Positions 9,300 to 19,215 of a DNA stretch of 25,708 nt are shown here, one piece after another. Each line of letters opens with the position of its first letter. The first letter of the stretch is position 1. A program made the position numbers and the translations under genes. The stretch covers positions 1 to 25,708 of IMG/VR virus record IMGVR_UViG_3300018050_001983. One strand, given 5' to 3'. The DNA is from a virus (lineage: Duplodnaviria; Caudoviricetes). The notes beneath the pieces were generated by a model. The model searched no databases, was not told the origin of the DNA, and saw nothing but the letters and a program-made list of their open reading frames with translations.

Positions 9300-9328
9300 T
9301 TGACTTTTATTAGTAATGTATGTACAAT
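9300..9328 (+). promoter_or_regulatory. sigma70 promoter for the two tRNA-Ile genes
   Basis: TTGACT-17bp-TACAAT. Confidence 0.75.
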
Positions 9329-9351
9329 AGACAGTGTTGTAAGTAGTGAAT

Positions 9352-9443
9352 GCCCCTGTAGCTCAGTGGAAGAGCAGCGGATTTATACCCCGTAGCGCCA
9401 GATAAGCGGCAGGTCGTAGGTTCGAATCCTACCAGGGGCACCA
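9352..9443 (+). tRNA. tRNA-Ile(UAU) with 22-nt variable region
   Basis: Acceptor GCCCCTG/CAGGGGC, D stem GCTC/GAGC, anticodon loop TT-TAT-AC, T arm GTAGG-TTCGAAT-CCTAC, encoded ACCA. Confidence 0.88.
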
Positions 9444-9451
9444 AGATTTTA

Positions 9452-9529
9452 GGGCTTCTAGCTCATGGTGGTTAGAGCAATCGACTCATAATCGATAGGT
9501 GCTGGGTTCGACCCCCAGGGAGCCTACCA
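9452..9529 (+). tRNA. tRNA-Ile2(CAU), lysidine type (Met not excluded)
   Basis: Cloverleaf with arm ATCGA-CTCATAA-TCGAT resembling bacterial Ile2; ACCA end. Confidence 0.85.
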
Positions 9530-9557
9530 AATATTTTAGTAAATAGTTTTAAATTTA

Positions 9558-9586
9558 TTGACAAGAACATATTAAGAAGTTATAAT
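9558..9586 (+). promoter_or_regulatory. sigma70 promoter for tRNA-Leu(UAA)
   Basis: TTGACA-17bp-TATAAT, perfect consensus. Confidence 0.85.
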
Positions 9587-9610
9587 ACATGAATAGTAAA
9601 TAAGTTTTTA

Positions 9611-9908
9611 GCCAGTATGGAGAAATTGGTAAACTCAGCGGACTTAAAGAAAATTTGAGTGCTCTACTGGAAACGGTAGAAGTAGAACCTGTCAAATTCG
9701 GTGAAGGCTGTAAAATGTTAATACCGAGCCAAGCCTAATAGAAATATTAGGAAGGTGTAGAGACTAGACGGCAGGCACCTAAAGCAAGAGCAATGGTGAA
9801 GGTATAGTCCAGACCACAAACTGCGTGAGCAGGTAGTGAAAACTATAGTGGGATGAAAATCCGCCGGCCTAATCAGCCTTGCCGGTTCGAGTCCGGCTAC
9901 TGGCACCA
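9611..9908 (+). tRNA. trnL: tRNA-Leu(UAA), split by an intron (exons 9611-9645 and 9856-9908)
   Basis: Joining exons gives GCGGA-CTTAAAA-TCCGC; acceptor GCCAGTA/TACTGGC, long V-arm, T arm GCCGG-TTCGAGT-CCGGC, ACCA. Confidence 0.92.
9646..9855 (+). ncRNA. Group I self-splicing intron (210 nt, no ORF)
   Basis: Inserted U^AA in the anticodon; ends in G; core elements AAATTCGGTGAA, AATACCGAGCCAAG, GTAGAGACTAGACG and AAGGTATAGTCC; internal guide GAGT pairs with exon end ACTT through a U.G wobble. Confidence 0.92.
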
Positions 9909-9934
9909 AGTTTTTTTATTGTAAAAAAGAGTTA

Positions 9935-9963
9935 TTGACATAAAAGGCTAAATAAAATACAAT
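9935..9963 (+). promoter_or_regulatory. sigma70 promoter of the attenuator leader
   Basis: TTGACA-17bp-TACAAT; expected +1 near 9970, at the ATG. Confidence 0.8.
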
Positions 9964-9969
9964 AGGTAT

Positions 9970-10104
9970 ATGATGATTAAAACACTATCCACTTTTAAGT
10001 TTGTACATGAGCCAAGTTTTGTGGCCTATCTGCCACAATATTGGACAATGTGCACTCGTATTAGTAATGGTGCATCAAAGCCCGGGAGGGTCCTTAAAGG
10101 ATAA
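9970..10104 (+). CDS. Putative attenuator leader peptide (44 aa)
   Basis: MMIKTLSTFKFVHEPSFVAYLPQYWTMCTRISNGASKPGRVLKG*; last codons and stop lie on the 5' arm of the antiterminator. Confidence 0.7.
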   Translation: MMIKTLSTFKFVHEPSFVAYLPQYWTMCTRISNGASKPGRVLKG

Positions 10105-10135
10105 GTGTAAAAAACACCTAATCGTTTAAGGACCC
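10088..10135 (+). promoter_or_regulatory. Antiterminator hairpin
   Basis: GGGTCCTTAAA (10088-10098) is the exact reverse complement of TTTAAGGACCC (10125-10135); inner pairing GAT/ATC and GTGT/ACAC; shares bases with the terminator. Confidence 0.75.
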
Positions 10136-10165
10136 CAGGATTAAAAACCCTGGGGTTTTTGTTTT
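10131..10165 (+). terminator. Rho-independent terminator (attenuator)
   Basis: ACCCCAGG/CCTGGGGT stem followed by TTTTGTTTT. Confidence 0.85.
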
Positions 10166-10340
10166 GTAGTAAGTGTGAAAGGGAACGCGATCCTGCCTGC
10201 ACTATAAACATGGGCTTAATGAGGGCGGAGCCGAAGATGAGAGGCCAGTGGCGATAACACTGGTAGTAAAAATCGGCTGTATTTAAACAGATTGATTTCA
10301 GTCTATTTAAATACCAACATTCGTATCGAGTGTTGTAAAT

Positions 10341-10423
10341 GCCCCGGTGGCTAGTGGAAATTGGTACACCTAATGGTCTTAGAAGCCATGCTTTTCTCGG
10401 TTCGAGTCCGAGCTGGGGCACCA
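10341..10423 (+). tRNA. tRNA-Leu(UAG), atypical (short V-loop, enlarged D region)
   Basis: ATGGT-CTTAGAA-GCCAT; acceptor GCCCCGG/CTGGGGC; T arm CTCGG-TTCGAGT-CCGAG; ACCA. Confidence 0.85.
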
Positions 10424-10428
10424 TATAT

Positions 10429-10504
10429 GGTCAGATATCTTAAGAGGAAGAGAGCATCCCTCATAAGGATGAAAGTGCAGCTTCGAGTGCTGCTCTGACC
10501 ACCA
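10429..10504 (+). tRNA. tRNA-Met(CAU), elongator type
   Basis: CATCC-CTCATAA-GGATG; acceptor GGTCAGA/TCTGACC; ACCA. Confidence 0.85.
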
Positions 10505-10510
10505 GTTTTA

Positions 10511-10586
10511 CTCCGATTGGGATAATAGGTAGTCCACCTCGTTTGGGGCGAGGAAGGTGCTGGTTCGAGTCCAGTGTCGGAGACCA
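10511..10586 (+). tRNA. tRNA-Pro(UGG)
   Basis: CCTCG-TTTGGGG-CGAGG; C1-G72; ACCA. Confidence 0.92.
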
Positions 10587-10593
10587 GTTTTTT

Positions 10594-10670
10594 GGGAGTA
10601 TAGCTCAGCGGTAGTAGCAAGATGCTTTTAACATCGAGGTCGGCGGGTTCGAATCCCCCTGCTCCCACCA
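10594..10670 (+). tRNA. tRNA-Lys(UUU)
   Basis: GATG-CTTTTAA-CATC; acceptor GGGAGTA/TGCTCCC; irregular T stem; ACCA. Confidence 0.88.
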
Positions 10671-10676
10671 GTCTAT

Positions 10677-10684
10677 TATAAATA
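10677..10684 (+). promoter_or_regulatory. T4-type late promoter
   Basis: Exact TATAAATA 21 bp before the amidohydrolase ATG. Confidence 0.7.
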
Positions 10685-10705
10685 ACCATTGTTAGGAATA
10701 AACAT

Positions 10706-11746
10706 ATGATTTCAGCCGATTCGCATATAATTGAACCTGTAGATTTAATAAAAAAATATGCTAGGTCTGAAGTTATAATGCCAAAATTAGTTACTAATTT
10801 TGAACAAAGTGAAGGTTACTTGATAGATGGATTTAAAGATATTATTTTTTTACGCTATCTTTATGGAAATAGAAAGTTAGATACAAAAATAGATTGGTCA
10901 GATATACCCAAAGCTGCCTGGAACCCAGATGCACGAATTAATTATCAATATGATAAGATGTTGGATGCAGAAGTAATTTATCCGACTCTAGGCATGGTAT
11001 TATTAAAGCACGAAGATTTAAATTATCAACGATGCTATTTTGATGCATACAATACTTGGCTATCAGAGTTTTGTTCAACTGACCCTAAACGACTGATAGG
11101 TATTGCTGTTATTCCTCATACAACCCCAGAGGAAATGTGCAAGTACCTAGAGAAAGTTCAAGATTTAAAACTGCCCGGTCTACTTTTACCTGCAAGTACT
11201 GAATTAGGTAATTTAAAATATAATATATTTTGGGAGGCGGTTGCTAATTTAAGGCTACCAGTGTCTTTTCATACTCATACTAGTTATTCAACCTGTATAC
11301 CGAATATTGAACCTAAAATATCTTCATATTTGTCAGCACCTAGGGAAATACAAAATGTTTTATTTTCCTTAATATTTTCTGGCATATTGGAAAAATATCC
11401 AAATTTAAAGATAGTGTTATCTGAATCTGACATAGGTTGGGTGCCATATGTAATTAATAAAATGGATTATATGTTCACAACTAGGCAAGAAATTCCTTAT
11501 AATATACAAGTTTTACCTAGTATAATTATGGAAAGGCAAGTTTATCATACCTGGTTAAACGAAAGAATTCATTCAAATATTCTAAACAATTATAATAAGA
11601 ATATTATGTATAGTAATGATTATCCTCATCCTGATTCTAATAACCTAACAAAACATCAAGTTTTAGAAAAATTCCTTATTGAGGTAGATTCTAATCATAG
11701 GGAAAACATTTTAGTAAACAACTGCCGAGAACTTTACGGTTTTTAA
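10706..11746 (+). CDS. Amidohydrolase family 2 (metal-dependent TIM barrel)
   Basis: ISADSHIIEP, AEVIYPT, YNTWLSEFC..DPKRL, PVSFH, ESDIGWVP, SNDYPHPDS. Confidence 0.9.
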   Translation: MISADSHIIEPVDLIKKYARSEVIMPKLVTNFEQSEGYLIDGFKDIIFLRYLYGNRKLDTKIDWSDIPKAAWNPDARINYQYDKMLDAEVIYPTLGMVLLKHEDLNYQRCYFDAYNTWLSEFCSTDPKRLIGIAVIPHTTPEEMCKYLEKVQDLKLPGLLLPASTELGNLKYNIFWEAVANLRLPVSFHTHTSYSTCIPNIEPKISSYLSAPREIQNVLFSLIFSGILEKYPNLKIVLSESDIGWVPYVINKMDYMFTTRQEIPYNIQVLPSIIMERQVYHTWLNERIHSNILNNYNKNIMYSNDYPHPDSNNLTKHQVLEKFLIEVDSNHRENILVNNCRELYGF

Positions 11747-11763
11747 ACAGAAAACAGTTCTAA

Positions 11764-11834
11764 TGGGGTATAGTGTAACGGCAGCACCCTTCACTTTGAC
11801 TGAAGTAGATCTAGTTCGAATCTAGATACCCCTT
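11764..11834 (+). tRNA. tRNA-Gln(UUG)
   Basis: CTTCA-CTTTGAC-TGAAG; acceptor TGGGGTA/TACCCCT; CCA not encoded. Confidence 0.88.
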
Positions 11835-11842
11835 CCCTATTT

Positions 11843-11917
11843 GCCTCTATAGTTAAATGGTTATAACGCCGTGCTGATAACGCGGTATTTCTAGTTCGAT
11901 TCTAGGTGGAGGCACCA
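11843..11917 (+). tRNA. tRNA-Ile(GAU)
   Basis: CCGTG-CTGATAA-CGCGG; ACCA. Confidence 0.92.
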
Positions 11918-11923
11918 AATTAT

Positions 11924-11952
11924 TTGACAGTATAAAAAATAGCATATATAAT
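11924..11952 (+). promoter_or_regulatory. sigma70 promoter
   Basis: TTGACA-17bp-TATAAT. Confidence 0.85.
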
Positions 11953-11984
11953 TTATGAATATTCCGAGGTGCGCGGAGAGTAAA

Positions 11985-12038
11985 AAATGTTTTGGTAAAG
12001 CAACCGACTAAATAGTTAAAAGGATTACCAAAATGTTT
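11985..12038 (+). promoter_or_regulatory. Translation-repressing hairpin with late promoter in its loop
   Basis: AAATGTTTTGGTAA pairs with TTACCAAAATGTTT (14 bp, 2 G.U), covering the ATG at 12033; TAAATA at 12009-12014. Confidence 0.7.
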
Positions 12039-12686
12039 AAGTGTAAATTTTGCTACAACTTAAGAAAAAATTCAAATAGTTTAAGAAATCACGAAAGACT
12101 TTGTAAAGATAACCCAGATAAACAAAAGACTTTTTTTCAAACTAATCCAGTTAAAGTTGCAGAAAAAAGAAAAGAAAAAGGTTACGAAAATCAATATACA
12201 AAAGCAAAAAAGTTAGGTATTCCTGCGCCTATAATAAGCGAAGAAACTCGTAAGAAAATATCAATTAAAACTACACAAAATAATTTAAATAGAGATAATT
12301 TGATTAAAGAAAAAATAAGTGATTCGATGAAAAAAGCTCACGCTGAGGGTAGAGCCTGGAATATTGGAAAAAGTAGATGGAATAATGAACCATCTTATCC
12401 TGAAAAATTTTTTATGCAAGTGATTCAAAATGAATTCAATGATAAAAATTATATTAGAGAATACCCATTTGGAATTTATTCTATAGATTTTGCTTGGCCA
12501 GATAAAAAAATAGCTATAGAAATAGATGGAGAACAACATTTAAGATTCGAGTCGTATAAAGAAAGAGATTTAAGAAAGGATGAATTGTTAAAAAATAACG
12601 GATGGTTAGTCTTGCGTATTCGATGGAAAGATATGTATAATGACACCAAAAGGTGGATAAAAATTGCTAAAGATTTTGTAAAGTGA
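12033..12686 (+). CDS. Free-standing putative homing endonuclease (Zn finger, NUMOD3-like helices, DUF559/Vsr-like nuclease)
   Basis: CKFC...HERLC; SEETRKKIS; IDFAWPDKKIAIEIDGEQH...D...GWLVLRIRW. Confidence 0.8.
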   Translation: MFKCKFCYNLRKNSNSLRNHERLCKDNPDKQKTFFQTNPVKVAEKRKEKGYENQYTKAKKLGIPAPIISEETRKKISIKTTQNNLNRDNLIKEKISDSMKKAHAEGRAWNIGKSRWNNEPSYPEKFFMQVIQNEFNDKNYIREYPFGIYSIDFAWPDKKIAIEIDGEQHLRFESYKERDLRKDELLKNNGWLVLRIRWKDMYNDTKRWIKIAKDFVK

Positions 12687-12693
12687 AACTTAC

Positions 12694-12768
12694 TCCGCGA
12701 TACCGTTCTAGGTGAGGCGGGTCTGACTGTTAATCAGAAATAGGTTGGTTCGAATCCAGCTCGCGGAG
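12694..12768 (+). tRNA. tRNA-Asn(GUU)
   Basis: TCTGA-CTGTTAA-TCAGA; acceptor TCCGCGA/TCGCGGA, G73; no CCA. Confidence 0.85.
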
Positions 12769-12794
12769 TAAGTTTCATTAAAAGGATATTTTGA

Positions 12795-12867
12795 TGCAGG
12801 GTGTAGCAGAGGTCAGCTAGCCAGTCTCATAAGCTGGAAGTCGGTGGTTCGAATCCATCCCCTGCTT
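12795..12867 (+). tRNA. tRNA-Met(CAU), initiator-like
   Basis: U1xU72 mismatch, A11-U24, CCAGT-CTCATAA-GCTGG; followed by CAA rather than CCA. Confidence 0.8.
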
Positions 12868-12917
12868 CAAAGTGTCTTATTAAGATATATTGCTGGAGTC
12901 GCATAGAATAAGATTAA

Positions 12918-12991
12918 GCCCCTTTAGTTAAAAAGTATAACAGTTGCCTTGTAAGCATCAATCGGGGGAGCGTTACCTCCAAGGGGCACCA
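12918..12991 (+). tRNA. tRNA-Thr(UGU)
   Basis: Loop CTTGTAA; acceptor GCCCCTT/AAGGGGC; atypical T loop AGCGTTA; ACCA. Confidence 0.82.
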
Positions 12992-12997
12992 AACAAT

Positions 12998-13075
12998 TCC
13001 GGAGTAGTTCCAATTGGCTAGAACGGCAGCCTCCAAATCTGCATGATGGGAGTTCGAATCTCTCCTCCGGAGCCA
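12998..13075 (+). tRNA. tRNA-Trp(CCA)
   Basis: Loop CTCCAAA; acceptor TCCGGAG/CTCCGGA; GCCA. Confidence 0.88.
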
Positions 13076-13081
13076 TCAAAT

Positions 13082-13157
13082 GTGAGTGTGACCCGAAAGG
13101 CTAGGGGACGGTTTGCAAGTCCGTTATATGTAGGTTCAAGTCCTATCACTCACTCCA
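13082..13157 (+). tRNA. tRNA-Cys(GCA)
   Basis: Loop TTGCAAG; U73; TCCA end. Confidence 0.88.
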
Positions 13158-13164
13158 AATTTTT

Positions 13165-13239
13165 GCGGGTATAATTCAGTGGAAGAATGTCACTTTGCCA
13201 AAGTGAATGTCGTCGGTTCGAACCCGACTACCCGCTCCA
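13165..13239 (+). tRNA. tRNA-Gly(GCC)
   Basis: TCACT-TTGCCAA-AGTGA; GCGGGTA/TACCCGC; TCCA. Confidence 0.93.
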
Positions 13240-13241
13240 CG

Positions 13242-13316
13242 GCTGATGTAGATCAGAGGTAGATCGCCATCTTGGTAAGATGGAAGTCCCCAGTTCGATC
13301 CTGGGCATCAGCACCA
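13242..13316 (+). tRNA. tRNA-Thr(GGU)
   Basis: CCATC-TTGGTAA-GATGG; ACCA. Confidence 0.93.
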
Positions 13317-13323
13317 CTATAAT

Positions 13324-13401
13324 GGATCCTTAACTCAGTGGAATAAGAGTGTCTGTCTTCGAAACAGAAGGTCGTCGGTTCGAATCCGCCAGGATCCGCC
13401 A
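13324..13401 (+). tRNA. tRNA-Arg(UCG)
   Basis: TCTGT-CTTCGAA-ACAGA; GCCA. Confidence 0.9.
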
Positions 13402-13409
13402 TTTTCCGT

Positions 13410-13484
13410 GGTGTCTATAGTGTAATGGGAGCACCACTCTCTGTGAAAGAGTGAGGATGAGATCGAAACTCATTAGACACCCCA
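13410..13484 (+). tRNA. tRNA-His(GUG)
   Basis: ACTCT-CTGTGAA-AGAGT; encoded G-1:C73 pair; CCA. Confidence 0.92.
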
Positions 13485-13485
13485 A

Positions 13486-13561
13486 GCCGTTATAGCAAAG
13501 ATGGTCTATGCAGCGGACTGAAAATCCGAGGATCTCCGATCGTTACGGAGTGACGGCACCA
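13486..13561 (+). tRNA. tRNA-Phe(GAA)
   Basis: CGGA-CTGAAAA-TCCG; T loop ATCGTTA; ACCA. Confidence 0.88.
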
Positions 13562-13566
13562 TTTAT

Positions 13567-13658
13567 GGAGAAGCAAACCGATTGGCGACGGTGCCTGTCT
13601 TGAAAACAGTTGAGCGTTAGTAACGCCTTGGGAGTTCGACTCTGCCCCTTCTCCGCCA
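13567..13658 (+). tRNA. tRNA-Ser(UGA)
   Basis: Loop CTTGAAA; long V-arm GCGTT/AACGC; GCCA. Confidence 0.9.
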
Positions 13659-13690
13659 TTGTTATCAAAAAACAACATCAAATATAGCGA

Positions 13691-13751
13691 TTGACATTTA
13701 AGTGAATGCTGTATATAATGTTGAAATAGTGCAGTAAACGATCTTTAAAAA
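13691..13751 (+). promoter_or_regulatory. sigma70 promoter followed by boxA-like element
   Basis: TTGACA-17bp-TATAAT (13691-13719); GATCTTTAAAAA at 13740-13751. Confidence 0.78.
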
Positions 13752-13765
13752 GTTGTACAAATTTT

Positions 13766-13837
13766 GCACCCATCGTCTATCGGTTAGGACACCAGATTTT
13801 CATTCTGGGAAGCGGGGTTCGACTCCCCGTGGGTGTA
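13766..13837 (+). tRNA. tRNA-Glu(UUC)
   Basis: CCAGA-TTTTCAT-TCTGG; T arm CGGGG-TTCGACT-CCCCG. Confidence 0.9.
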
Positions 13838-13838
13838 C

Positions 13839-13907
13839 CCATATTGAAACACATTAATTGTCCCACAGAGGCCATTACTAATATCTGTATAGTGTGTTTC
13901 AATATGG
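13839..13907 (+). repeat. Long closing stem, copy 1 (CCATATTGAAACACAT...GTGTGTTTCAATATGG)
   Basis: 16-bp inverted repeat around a variable interior; near-identical arms recur at 14759-14850. Confidence 0.8.
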
Positions 13908-14044
13908 TTCTGAGAAAATGTGAGGCCAAACAGCCCAACTATCAGGGTAAAACTGATTCCTACTTCCTGCTAGCCACAGGTTCTACAAGTAGGAGAGCTA
14001 CCTTATGGCTCTTAAACAGATGATAGTAACCATAATCATTTTTT

Positions 14045-14127
14045 GGATGACGGGCGGCATTGGCGACCGCAGCTGACTGTAAATCAGTGCCTTCGGGAAC
14101 GGGGTTCGAATCCCTGGTCATCCACCA
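14045..14127 (+). tRNA. tRNA-Tyr(GUA)
   Basis: GCTGA-CTGTAAA-TCAGT; V-arm with CC-TTCG-GG; ACCA. Confidence 0.92.
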
Positions 14128-14132
14128 AAACA

Positions 14133-14393
14133 TGCTGTCTAATCAACAGCTACTCTGACCCAGAGGAAAGAAGTGGTGTGATAACCACGGGTGGTTCTGA
14201 GATTAAAAATCTCACAGTAGCAATACTGCGGTCTAACCTAACCGGCCTTGGCAATAGGATAATCCTCCCTGGTCGAGAAGCGGATGGAGGGCGGGCGTGA
14301 TGGTTGATTTACTGATGCAGAAGGCGTATACACCCGGATGCAAGTGATGTAATAAACTTGATCTGCTATAGTTACCGCCGCAGGGAGGCAGCA
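14133..14393 (+). ncRNA. Unidentified structured RNA (~260 nt)
   Basis: GC-richer spacer closed by TGCTG/CAGCA with at least five local hairpins and CCTCCCTG/CAGGGAGG. Confidence 0.6.
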
Positions 14394-14403
14394 CCCGAAT
14401 TTA

Positions 14404-14478
14404 GGTTCCATAGTATATCAGCGAGTATAGCGCCCTGTCACGGCGCAGGAACGGGTTCGAATCCCGTTGGGACCGCCA
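14404..14478 (+). tRNA. tRNA-Asp(GUC)
   Basis: GCGCC-CTGTCAC-GGCGC; GCCA. Confidence 0.92.
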
Positions 14479-14572
14479 AAGGAAAACCAGGGAGAGCTGC
14501 GGTTTGAAATTATAGACCTCTTACCGCTCGCTCTTAAACAACAGAACAAGACCGTGTCCCATATTAGATTTA

Positions 14573-14662
14573 GGAAGGCTCCCATAATGGTATTGGAGAA
14601 GATTGCTAATCTTTCGCCCGGCGTAATCCGGGTTCGGGGTTCGAGTCCCCGGCCTTCCGCCA
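14573..14662 (+). tRNA. tRNA-Ser(GCU)
   Basis: GAAGA-TTGCTAA-TCTTT; V-arm CCCGG/CCGGG; GCCA. Confidence 0.92.
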
Positions 14663-14671
14663 ATTAAATAA

Positions 14672-14732
14672 TTGACATTATATCCAAATGGCACTATAAT
14701 GTTTACATAGTGTAATAAACGATCTTTAACAA
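14672..14732 (+). promoter_or_regulatory. sigma70 promoter followed by boxA-like element
   Basis: TTGACA-17bp-TATAAT (14672-14700); GATCTTTAACAA at 14721-14732. Confidence 0.8.
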
Positions 14733-14758
14733 ATAATAAGTGTCAACAAAAGGTTAAC

Positions 14759-14850
14759 ACCATATTGAAGCACATTTCGGACAGTGGAGATACGCAAGTG
14801 TACAGTCTGTTCCCAAGAAAGAGCCACAGGGGAGTGTGTTTCAATATGGT
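14759..14850 (+). repeat. Long closing stem, copy 2
   Basis: ACCATATTGAAGCACATTTC/GGAGTGTGTTTCAATATGGT, 20 bp including three G.U pairs. Confidence 0.8.
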
Positions 14851-15025
14851 AGGAGCAGAGTCTAGTGGGAAGGACAACCAGTGACCCCGGTACTTACGAA
14901 AACCGACCATCAATTGGGAATTAGTGAAAGGGCTATATTGGTAAACGGAGTAGCGGGAGAGGGTGATGCCTCAATGTGTCTACACCGGCCATAAATTATT
15001 GTGTAAACGCAACACCAAATTTCGG

Positions 15026-15054
15026 TTGACAATAATATCCGTTTTTGCTATAAT
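15026..15054 (+). promoter_or_regulatory. Early sigma70 promoter (extended -10)
   Basis: TTGACA-17bp-TATAAT with TG at -15/-14. Confidence 0.88.
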
Positions 15055-15086
15055 ATAAGTATAGTGAATAGCAAGGAGCGAACGAA

Positions 15087-15275
15087 ATGAGCACCGCTAA
15101 GAAATGGTTACCCACCGATCCACGGCACTTCGAAGGTAAGACCCTCAGGGAACTTCAGGATCGGTTGGTGGAAGCAGAGCAGTTTGCCCGAGACCATCCA
15201 CAGTTTGAGTATGGTTGGCACAATGAGTATAGGCAGGAACTGCGTCGTCGGATCGCCGAAAAGATTGGCAAGTAA
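15087..15275 (+). CDS. Hypothetical early protein
   Basis: SD AAGGAG; directly after the promoter. Confidence 0.8.
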   Translation: MSTAKKWLPTDPRHFEGKTLRELQDRLVEAEQFARDHPQFEYGWHNEYRQELRRRIAEKIGK

Positions 15276-16279: not shown

Positions 16280-16539
16280 GTCCCGGCAGGCTTTACAGAC
16301 ATATCCCTAGTCGGTGTAGCACACTTGGCTGAGGCGGGTGAAAACCCCGTCAACTAAAATATGCGAGTGATAGCGGACTACGCATACGGACATTTAGGCT
16401 TGAGGGCTGTCGCCCAAGATACATAAGACACTATGAAACCACTTTAGGGAGTGGCATCATAGTTCAATACACTCAGATCCCAATTGACCTAAGCGTTCAC
16501 GGAGTAGGCACGCATTTGGTGCAAGTATATTGAACTATG
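16280..16539 (+). ncRNA. Structured non-coding region
   Basis: Chain of hairpins ending in CATAGTTCAATACACT/AGTATATTGAACTATG; no credible ORF. Confidence 0.45.
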
Positions 16540-16589
16540 CTGTAATATAAAATAGTTTTGAAATAATAAATATTATATTAGAATCTAAT

Positions 16590-17420: not shown

Positions 17421-17539
17421 TTAAAGTAGTGTCTTATGCACGACTGTATCTCACCGGTCTTCTAAACCGGCGTTAACCGAGTAACTGGAGTATGCAGGTT
17501 CGAGCCCTGTCAGTCGTGCATAAGGCATTCCCACTTTAA
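17421..17539 (+). ncRNA. D-armless tRNA-Arg(UCU) mimic in the ligase 5' leader
   Basis: Anticodon arm CCGGT-CTTCTAA-ACCGG, V-arm GTTA/TAAC, T arm GCAGG-TTCGAGC-CCTGT, 19+7-bp closing stem, no CCA. Confidence 0.8.
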
Positions 17540-17559: not shown

Positions 17560-18579
17560 ATGAGAAAACTAGCTACGATTCGTCATATCGATGCAATTGA
17601 TCCTATTCCTAATGCTGACTCTATTGAAGTAGCCACATTAGGAGGTTGGAAAGTTGTGGTTAAAAAAAATGATTTTACTGTGAATGATCTAGCAATCTAT
17701 TGTGAAATCGATAGCTGGATTCCACATACTATTGCCCCATACTTGAGCAAAGGCGAAACTCCTAAAGTATATAATGGAGTAGAGGGCCAACGGCTAAAGT
17801 CAATTAAATTAAGGGGGCAAATAAGCCAAGGTCTACTCCTAAAACTAGAAGATTTTTTCCCAACTGCAAGCACTTTGCCAGTTGAAGGACAAGATGTAAC
17901 AGATATTCTAGGTATTCAAAAATGGGAAGCACCTGTACCAGCTCAATTAGCTGGAGAGGTAAATGGAATATTTCCTAATTATATTCCTAAAACTGATCAA
18001 GAAAGAATTCAAAATCTTGTAGATGAACTTGCTGATTGGAAACAACAAAATCTTACATGGGAAGTTACTGAAAAATTGGATGGTTGCAGCATGACCGCCT
18101 ATTTAATGAACGGTAAATTTGGAGTATGTAGCCGCAATTACGATCTTAAAGAAAATGAAAAAAATAGTCTTTGGCTTGCTGCTAAACAGCAACAACTAGA
18201 AGCAGCTTTGCGCACTTTAGGCGATAATGTTGCTATTCAAGGTGAGCTAGTAGGAGAAGGCATTCAAGGCAATCCATATAAGTTAAAAGGACAACAGTTT
18301 TACCTTTTTGATATCTTTGACATCAAGACCGGAGAGTACTTTCATCCTTCAGATAGACAACTTTTTGCAAGAAATACTGGTATGAATCATGTGCCTATTG
18401 TTGCTCATGAGCATAAGATTACTGAATCAATTACAGAAATTTTGATTATGGCAGAAGGCTCAGCTAGGCTCAGCAAAGATACTGTAACTAGAGAAGGTCT
18501 TGTGTTTAAAGCCAATGAAAACACAAGTGTGCATTTTAAGGCCATTAGTAACAAATTCTTGCTGAAACAGGACAAATAA
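17560..18579 (+). CDS. ATP-dependent RNA ligase, DraRnl (DRB0094)/Rnl5 family
   Basis: N-terminal MRKLATIRHI..I.PIPNAD.IE OB domain; motif I TEKLDG; CSRN; QGEL.G.GIQGN.Y; FDIF; REGLVFK; FKAISN.FL. Confidence 0.92.
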   Translation: MRKLATIRHIDAIDPIPNADSIEVATLGGWKVVVKKNDFTVNDLAIYCEIDSWIPHTIAPYLSKGETPKVYNGVEGQRLKSIKLRGQISQGLLLKLEDFFPTASTLPVEGQDVTDILGIQKWEAPVPAQLAGEVNGIFPNYIPKTDQERIQNLVDELADWKQQNLTWEVTEKLDGCSMTAYLMNGKFGVCSRNYDLKENEKNSLWLAAKQQQLEAALRTLGDNVAIQGELVGEGIQGNPYKLKGQQFYLFDIFDIKTGEYFHPSDRQLFARNTGMNHVPIVAHEHKITESITEILIMAEGSARLSKDTVTREGLVFKANENTSVHFKAISNKFLLKQDK

Positions 18580-18580
18580 A

Positions 18581-18832
18581 ATGGTCCTCTATAAAGTAAT
18601 GAATATTGAAACAGAAATGTTTCACAAAGGCGGGGTCTATACCAGGTGGAGTAAACAAGGCAAAGTTTGGACAAGTTTAGGATCGTTACGATCCTTTATT
18701 ACATTAACAATGAAAGGTGCGCAGGATATAAATAAATGGCGCATAATTGAATATCAAGTAAATGTTGCGTCAGTTAAAGAACTATCCGAAGTAATAAAAC
18801 CTGAAAAAATGATAGAGCTACTAAGTAAATGA
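18581..18832 (+). CDS. Hypothetical protein
   Basis: 83-aa ORF tightly coupled between the ligase and the GGQ protein. Confidence 0.75.
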   Translation: MVLYKVMNIETEMFHKGGVYTRWSKQGKVWTSLGSLRSFITLTMKGAQDINKWRIIEYQVNVASVKELSEVIKPEKMIELLSK

Positions 18833-19215
18833 TTCAAGATAAAAAGCCATTATTCTCAATTACTGACAAAGATTGTGAGTGGAGCTATGCTCGGGGTTCG
18901 GGTAATGGGGGGCAAGCCAGGAATCGATCCAATAATGCTGTACACTGTATGCATCGTCCTTCTGGTGCCCATGGCTATTCAGAAGCTAGTCGTAGCCAAG
19001 CTGAAAACAAACGAGATGCATTTCAAAAAATGTATGAGTCGGATGCGTTCAAAAAATGGTTACATATTGAGTTTATGAAACGATCAGGCGAAATGGCAGA
19101 AATAGATAGACGAGTAGAACAAGAACTTTTAAAAGTTAAAACTGAAATAAAAATTGATGGTAAATGGACAGAAGTTGCAATTGAACAATTGGACAATATG
19201 GAAGTACAAACATAA
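18829..19215 (+). CDS. RF-1-domain peptidyl-tRNA hydrolase (ArfB/release-factor-like)
   Basis: YARGSGNGGQARNRSNNAVHCMHRPSG...SRSQAENKRDA, the class I release-factor catalytic domain. Confidence 0.88.
   Translation: MIQDKKPLFSITDKDCEWSYARGSGNGGQARNRSNNAVHCMHRPSGAHGYSEASRSQAENKRDAFQKMYESDAFKKWLHIEFMKRSGEMAEIDRRVEQELLKVKTEIKIDGKWTEVAIEQLDNMEVQT

Follow-up and report, generated by a model that had tools for sequence, protein, structure and literature searches.

The window, which is the whole of a 25.7-kb virus record (25,708 nt), carries ahead of 21 tRNA genes an element that likely acts as a ribosome-dependent transcription attenuator sensing the supply of usable tRNA, as judged from its sequence, its modelled folding and its relatives. 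T4-like terminase, ssDNA-binding, UvsX and UvsY genes are present in the window, and the closest cultured relatives are the Pseudomonas phages PA5oct and Paride for the terminase (57%) and Phosso and Atu_ph07 for the recombinase (67%). At least half of the sampled words are held by 14 of the 24 runs listed, all 14 being freshwater, river, lake or wastewater metagenomes, and the source of the window is a freshwater jumbo phage. Upstream of the element, a tRNA-Leu(UAA) at 9611-9908 contains a 210-nt group I intron (Rfam RF00028), which is polymorphic within the population, since it is missing from contigs of three other runs and from a sister strain. A 92-nt tRNA at 9352-9443 has a UAU anticodon and a long variable arm, and is called Ile by ARAGORN. 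The element and the array that follows it comprise these features:

9935..9963, plus strand: predicted sigma70-type promoter, TTGACA-17-TACAAT, 11/12 consensus, retained in the sister strain
9970..10104, plus strand: leader ORF of 44 codons with 19 amino acids, lacking Asp; start predicted to be leaderless or near-leaderless
10003..10055, plus strand: hairpin within the ORF, -22.8 kcal/mol, z -4.0 against codon shuffles; possible polymerase pause
10088..10135, plus strand: predicted antiterminator hairpin, -23.5 kcal/mol, with the stop codon within its 5' arm
10132..10165, plus strand: intrinsic terminator, stem 10132-10156 plus U tract, its 5' arm common to the antiterminator
10172..10290, plus strand: conserved structured RNA, unclassified, the first read-through product
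10341..11917, plus strand: six tRNA genes without a second consensus promoter (Leu-UAG, CAU, Pro-UGG, Lys-UUU, Gln-UUG, Ile-GAU)
10706-11746, plus strand: amidohydrolase gene among the first six tRNA genes
11924..13658, plus strand: internal promoter (12/12) at 11924, endonuclease-like gene at 12033-12686 and 11 tRNA genes
13691..14662, plus strand: internal promoter (12/12) at 13691, boxA-like element and four tRNA genes (Glu, Tyr, Asp, Ser)

The ATG at 9970 lies 6 nt past the -10 box, so that a transcription start at the ATG itself is plausible, and promoters at 9300 and 9558 may also read into the leader. Within the ORF, 32 of the 61 codons and 28 of the 32 isoacceptor (decoding) classes are used, no amino acid forms a run, and all 19 amino acids are reached by codon 34. 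Taken singly, this ORF does not have a composition significantly beyond chance, and significance is reached only at the family level: 44 codons would contain at least 19 amino acids with a probability of 0.094 if windows of the phage's genes serve as the null and 0.14 if its own base composition does, while the use of 32 codons has P 0.007 against the AT-biased genes of the phage and P 0.21 given the peptide. A preliminary description of this DNA had correctly given the promoter, the length of the ORF, its 19 amino acids without Asp and its 32 codons; its term "pan-codon" is too strong for 32 of 61 codons, and what stands is an all-amino-acid leader in which isoacceptor classes are modestly in excess. 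Searched by BLASTN against 50,697 annotated phage records, the leader gave just two short chance matches, and the sole homologous cluster of the peptide is the sister allele.

An assembly error is ruled out as the cause of the missing Asp, as the ORF recurs in two RNA-library contigs of separate studies, in full in one and from codon 10 in the other, and both lack Asp. One RNA-library match begins at 9965 and one spans 9996-10234 across the terminator, although these contigs carry no information on strand, ends or level. The sister allele, found on two other contigs, is 96% identical and differs by four changes, all non-synonymous. Among them is Tyr24 to Asp at codon 24, which leaves another Tyr in place and brings the allele to all 20 amino acids. 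Because the usual Asp site of the family is lost in both alleles, the Asp of the sister appears to have been regained at a new place.

The pairing of 10088-10098 with 10125-10135, which the preliminary description had placed over the 5' arm of the terminator, was recovered by repeat search and by folding; it is perfect and lies inside an 18-nt inverted repeat. The leader as a whole folds with z -5.3, none of 200 shuffles being equally stable, and the terminator hairpin (10132-10157) has -14.3 kcal/mol. A simple terminator scan missed 10132-10165 because of its 9-nt loop, and other scans found it. In a model in which RNA under the ribosome is masked and the remainder folds at equilibrium, the terminator probability in the window is 0.24-0.31 with the ribosome at codons 1-32, 0.35-0.79 at codons 33-36 and 1.0 from codon 37, the value of 1.0 with the ribosome at the stop following from the masking; with no ribosome it is 0.41. 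Switching is obtained in 37 of 52 non-redundant leaders and is not clean in 15 of the 52, in Atu_ph07 or in the first RsoM2USA leader.

Without a ribosome, the same model favours the antiterminator in 41 of the 52 leaders, so that any loss of translation would open the switch. This behaviour would suit a general ribosome speedometer, which reports ribosome availability or elongation rate (in dormancy, under antibiotics or under ribosome-inactivating defences) with amino-acid content secondary, and broad uORF sensors do exist in toiL and whiB7. We consider such a device improbable as the whole explanation, for it predicts neither the selection for all 20 amino acids nor the leaders matched to their tRNA clusters that are described below; ribosome speed is likely sensed in addition to tRNA supply and not in its place.

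That tRNA supply is what the attenuator senses is suggested by its relatives. A search pattern made of the antiterminator core and the terminator returned 93 viral loci, four of them with neither a short ORF nor tRNA. These pattern loci, together with tRNA-linked terminator-only matches, synteny matches and the window, form a set of 97 leaders that collapses to 52 (<85% identity); the leader ORF was picked on length and start context, composition not being used, and one locus (L352) duplicates the window exactly and does not count as a separate case. All 20 amino acids occur in 41 of the 52 non-redundant leaders (expected 1.0) and at least 19 in 50 (expected 5.5), while the other frames (shifted, reverse) give 0, 0 and 1 all-20 leaders of 52. 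Among the 47 leaders that can be aligned (five short or unalignable ones omitted, and kinship ignored in the statistics), 39 (83%) contain all 20; column shuffles yield 7.4+-2.4 such leaders, and crossover chimeras 47%. No alignable leader is without Cys, yet this single residue is spread over 21 alignment columns. Completeness above that of shuffles and chimeras, with a Cys that is kept but wanders, indicates that selection keeps the presence of each amino acid and not its position. In 44 of the 47, more decoding classes are used than after synonymous resampling (28.3 vs 26.3-26.8 of 32), which amounts to a modest effect at the isoacceptor level. It is no general rule that the classes a leader lacks (in the window leader Ile-AUA and Leu-UUR) mirror the upstream tRNAs, for codons of Leu-UUR occur in 40 of the 47 leaders.

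New amino acids are front-loaded ahead of the switch, above order shuffles, in 43-48 of 49 leaders (one 14-amino-acid leader omitted), and the last new amino acid comes a median of 11 nt ahead of the helix. Counting against the main reading, in 29 of the 49 the first Glu comes no more than 15 nt from the helix, on the border of the sensing zone. In all 50 leaders with an anchor (two have none), the fold is the same and the antiterminator arm contains the stop 8-23 nt from its beginning. The antiterminator core is imposed by the search pattern and the main family is of common ancestry; the pairs adjoining the core co-vary, in 6 of 50 at one position. The inner halves fold at -20.1 natively and -15.9 when swapped, the native combination being best in just 8 of 50, and the terminator is nearly invariant in alignment A1, in part owing to the search design. 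Relatives retain the position of the stop inside a covarying antiterminator, and the mean identity of their peptides is 38%; covarying arms and poor peptide conservation are what the preliminary description had anticipated.

Samples drawn on other grounds also link such ORFs to tRNA genes. Among terminator-only matches (119 loci, 151 oriented matches, 66 with short flanks), an ORF of 19-20 amino acids was found in all five with downstream tRNAs, versus 3 of the 80 fully covered matches without tRNAs. Synteny anchored on UvsY gave 80 loci, 11 with downstream tRNAs and five of these with the terminator; all five ORFs have 20 amino acids, and two of the five are contigs already in the pattern set. 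At one UvsY-anchored locus (L224), no leader was seen. In bacterial genomes, 118 usable matches to the same pattern included four with an ORF of 19-20 amino acids, five with a tRNA and one with both. At three bacterial loci (L429, L387 and L399), short ORFs with 19-20 amino acids end 32-34 nt before a terminator of the same type, one of them preceding tRNA-Gly, and these are possible cellular all-amino-acid leaders.

The same relatives bear on the proposal that the peptide or the released leader RNA is itself the functional product, the terminator simply ending a small transcript and the tRNAs being made from other promoters. Some residues are conserved in the main family, pN/pS is 0.52 and thus below 1 across 44 nearest-neighbour leader pairs, the hairpin within the ORF is strong (z<-2 in 38 of 52 leaders), and so are the internal promoters of the array. 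The proposal is nevertheless very unlikely, given a window peptide with a mean identity of only 19% to its relatives and no Pfam or PHROG family, six tRNA genes without another consensus promoter, and an antiterminator conserved around the stop. An antiterminator controlled by a protein or ligand (a phage factor or the downstream structured RNA), with the ORF incidental, draws on the conserved unclassified RNA past the terminator and on a gene of 50-60 aa found there in many relatives, but is likewise very unlikely, since indels that keep the frame (in threes in 25 of 42 inside the ORF vs 4 of 41 past the stop) and selection on composition point to translation and the structured RNA sits past the terminator.

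Of the signs that a leader tests the tRNAs encoded behind it, the strongest is the match between the two in split arrays. Three of 12 cultured records (Atu_ph07, Phosso and RsoM2USA) carry the same geometry, with the stop 29-33 nt before a terminator, in unrelated sequence:

MF403008.1 339118-339246: Atu_ph07 leader, 42 codons, 18 amino acids
PV764938.1 419754-419918: Phosso leader, 54 codons, 19 amino acids
MG752970.1 87248-87361: first RsoM2USA leader, not annotated in the record
MG752970.1 112047-112124: second RsoM2USA leader, seen by eye in one of eight upstream regions printed

The cluster behind the first RsoM2USA leader reads Met-Ile-Asn-Asn-Gln-Lys-Arg-Phe-Ala-Val-Phe-Pro-Lys-Asp-Thr, and 33 of the 36 leader residues fall within the amino acids of that cluster (P 1.8e-4). 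Behind the second leader the cluster reads Pro-Cys-Glu-Tyr-Leu-Trp-Ser-His-Val, and 21 of 24 residues fall within this set, with all nine present (P 2e-6). Similar division is visible by eye in other phages. Of two leaders in G002, the first lacks Glu, Lys and Trp, whose tRNAs sit behind the second, while the second lacks Ala, Phe, His, Pro and Gln, whose tRNAs sit behind the first, Cys being the exception; G002 may have a third leader. The second leader of G001 lacks Glu and Tyr, and those tRNAs lie upstream, behind a Tyr-rich first leader, and in G003 Trp is missing both from the leader and from the 20 kb of array covered. Mismatches also occur: leaders lack Val in G008 and Leu in G005 although the respective tRNAs are present, the Atu_ph07 leader lacks Leu with a tRNA-Leu downstream, and the window leader has Ala and Val codons while its downstream set has neither tRNA.

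Since sequence model R1 has no match in 18 stretches of cultured phages and their leaders were found by geometry, these are apparently either analogous to the window family or very diverged. No leader was seen in the tRNA stretches of the other nine cultured records (XbC2, CBB, Munch, Vibrio 2.275.O, Paride, PA5oct, BF, 121Q and XacN1), negatives that are weak because the scan missed one RsoM2USA leader later spotted by eye. The absence of a leader from the tRNA stretches of PA5oct and Paride, the closest cultured relatives by terminase, counts against the main reading.

Downstream of the terminator, the structured RNA at 10172-10290 follows 33 of the 52 leaders by pattern. In 30 aligned copies, 15 of 20 pairs change on both sides, and none of 500 shuffles attains the covariation score; an extra pseudoknot pairing, visible by eye in the alignment, stands outside this count. 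The tally of 21 downstream tRNA genes in the preliminary description holds (18 from ARAGORN, Thr-UGU from Rfam, and by eye Ser-UGA, which is called in the sister strain, and Leu-UAG, which has a weak Rfam match), as do the internal promoters at 11924 and 13691, both retained in the sister strain. Its statement that the leader gates the array is too strong, because 15 of the 21 tRNAs bypass the switch through these two promoters, and may hold for the six with no other consensus promoter. In a relaxed scan of 9300-15100, the one terminator candidate past that of the leader is weak and sits where a tRNA ends, which would leave read-through free to extend over the array. Among relatives, a consensus promoter lies before the first tRNA in 5 of 40 and within 1.5 kb in 8 of 40, and Phosso has two further promoter-like sites before its first tRNA. 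The 50-60 aa gene lies directly past the terminator (e.g. L004:1599-1751 and L023:1597-1770) and is absent in the window; two such genes tested have no Pfam match, and the gene may be a main regulated product in those relatives.

Several other elements lie in or near the array. The gene at 12033-12686 encodes a DUF559/HNH-type endonuclease, and contigs of four runs stop matching at 11953-11975, which suggests that it is a variable insert. A repeated element at 13721-13751 and 14702-14732, following promoters at 13691 and 14672, is what we take to be boxA-like. Between tRNA-Tyr and tRNA-Asp, 14130-14403 forms several hairpins (no Rfam match, fold z -1.0), and a contig related to this segment has high depth in one RNA library. 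Long-armed hairpins downstream of promoters at 13839-13907, 14759-14850 and 16455-16542, the first two sharing arm sequence, are possible processing stems or small RNAs. A lone tRNA with its own promoter (17440-17518, UCU anticodon by eye) is followed by an RNA ligase gene (17560-18579) and an RF-1-domain protein gene (18829-19215), possibly a set for tRNA repair and ribosome rescue.

The attenuator reading and the broad sampling of the tRNA pool put forward in the preliminary description gain support from the relatives, namely from the conserved stop in a covarying antiterminator, the selection for all 20 amino acids and the cluster-matched leaders. Host sigma70 polymerase would start at about 9970 and a ribosome would load on the leader at once, while the hairpin within the ORF may pause the polymerase. 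The antiterminator would form earlier in time than the terminator, and would win with the A site in codons 1-36, the terminator winning from codon 37. A ribosome reaching the last codons would therefore let the terminator form, and one held earlier by any scarce or uncharged tRNA would allow read-through into the structured RNA and the tRNA genes, as the sole consensus-promoter source for six tRNAs and a supplement for the other fifteen. The net effect would be negative feedback on phage tRNA supply, with starvation, demand from phage codon use and host tRNA nucleases as candidate natural triggers. In a broader scheme, on which our judgement is evenly divided, large phages would run closed-loop tRNA control: each cluster would be headed by a test gene written in its own amino acids and a complete array by an all-20 leader, such that the loss of any host tRNA, cutting by anticodon nucleases included, would be detected and matching replacements transcribed.

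It is a long-open question whether phage tRNA arrays serve codon compensation or the replacement of destroyed tRNA. If a sensor turns up tRNA genes just at times of faltering decoding, this would speak for the replacement view, which single-codon changes could then test. Cultured carriers are available (Phosso on Sinorhizobium meliloti, Atu_ph07 and RsoM2USA), and the two natural alleles, one with 19 amino acids and one with 20, offer a control that already exists. A compact leader of the all-amino-acid kind would, in addition, report tRNA damage, and, if the closed-loop scheme is true, leader content would record which tRNAs hosts attack.

Among known systems, T-box riboswitches also let tRNA charging set the choice between terminator and antiterminator. 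There, the RNA binds tRNA directly and has no ORF, whereas the window has an ORF, and its leader and downstream RNA have no match in Rfam, T-box included. Closer are the leader-peptide attenuators of amino-acid operons (trpL, hisL, pheL/pheM, thrL and ilvL). As in the trpL/hisL type, a short leader ORF lies between the promoter and the controlled genes and ends in one arm of an antiterminator, the rival of an intrinsic terminator, the two hairpins being mutually exclusive as predicted and conserved in silico. A ribosome at the end of the ORF would cover that arm (stop in the arm in 50/50, model 37/52), stalling is predicted to give read-through, and the leader codons correspond to what the controlled genes produce. 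Unlike trp, his, phe and thr attenuators, the window has 19 amino acids and no run of one control codon, and it precedes a structured RNA, tRNAs and an amidohydrolase gene instead of biosynthesis or synthetase genes. It also has no clear 1:2 protector helix, unlike the trp/his type, so the untranslated state is predicted to read through.

The uORF of whiB7 (wblC) in M. smegmatis lacks Cys alone among the amino acids, and a single Trp codon is enough to make it sense Trp; like the window, it combines 19 of 20 amino acids with an antiterminator/terminator switch, and losing its start raises whiB7 expression (PMC10274678, accessible text). It differs in its target, a host stress regulator, and in an Ala-enriched uORF often missing several amino acids, and the accessible text reports neither selection for completeness in about 45 codons nor matching to tRNA clusters (PMC10274678); the window element is not upstream of whiB7 in Actinobacteria but precedes a phage tRNA array. 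The toiL uORF of E. coli topAI is multipurpose and senses stalls at many positions, but, as described in the accessible part of that report, acts by translational attenuation and Rho, with no intrinsic terminator and a toxin-antitoxin target (bioRxiv 10.1101/682021). Phage tRNA arrays offset tRNA-cutting defences, and their expression level matters (PMC11555353; PMC10264068); the accessible portions of these studies describe a strong promoter and no sensor, and supply a motive, not evidence, for the switch in the window. None of "attenuat-", "leader" and "terminator" occurs in the main text of the Atu_ph07 or the RsoM2USA paper, and a jumbo-phage review contains neither "attenuat-" nor "leader". 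In line with the preliminary description, which knew of no phage tRNA array under such control, no attenuator of phage tRNA genes was found in the literature searched (subscription journals and supplements lying outside its scope). The mechanism proposed for the window would thus be one already known from trp/his attenuators and, in multi-amino-acid form, from the whiB7 uORF, and its target, the tRNA genes of a phage, would be what is new.
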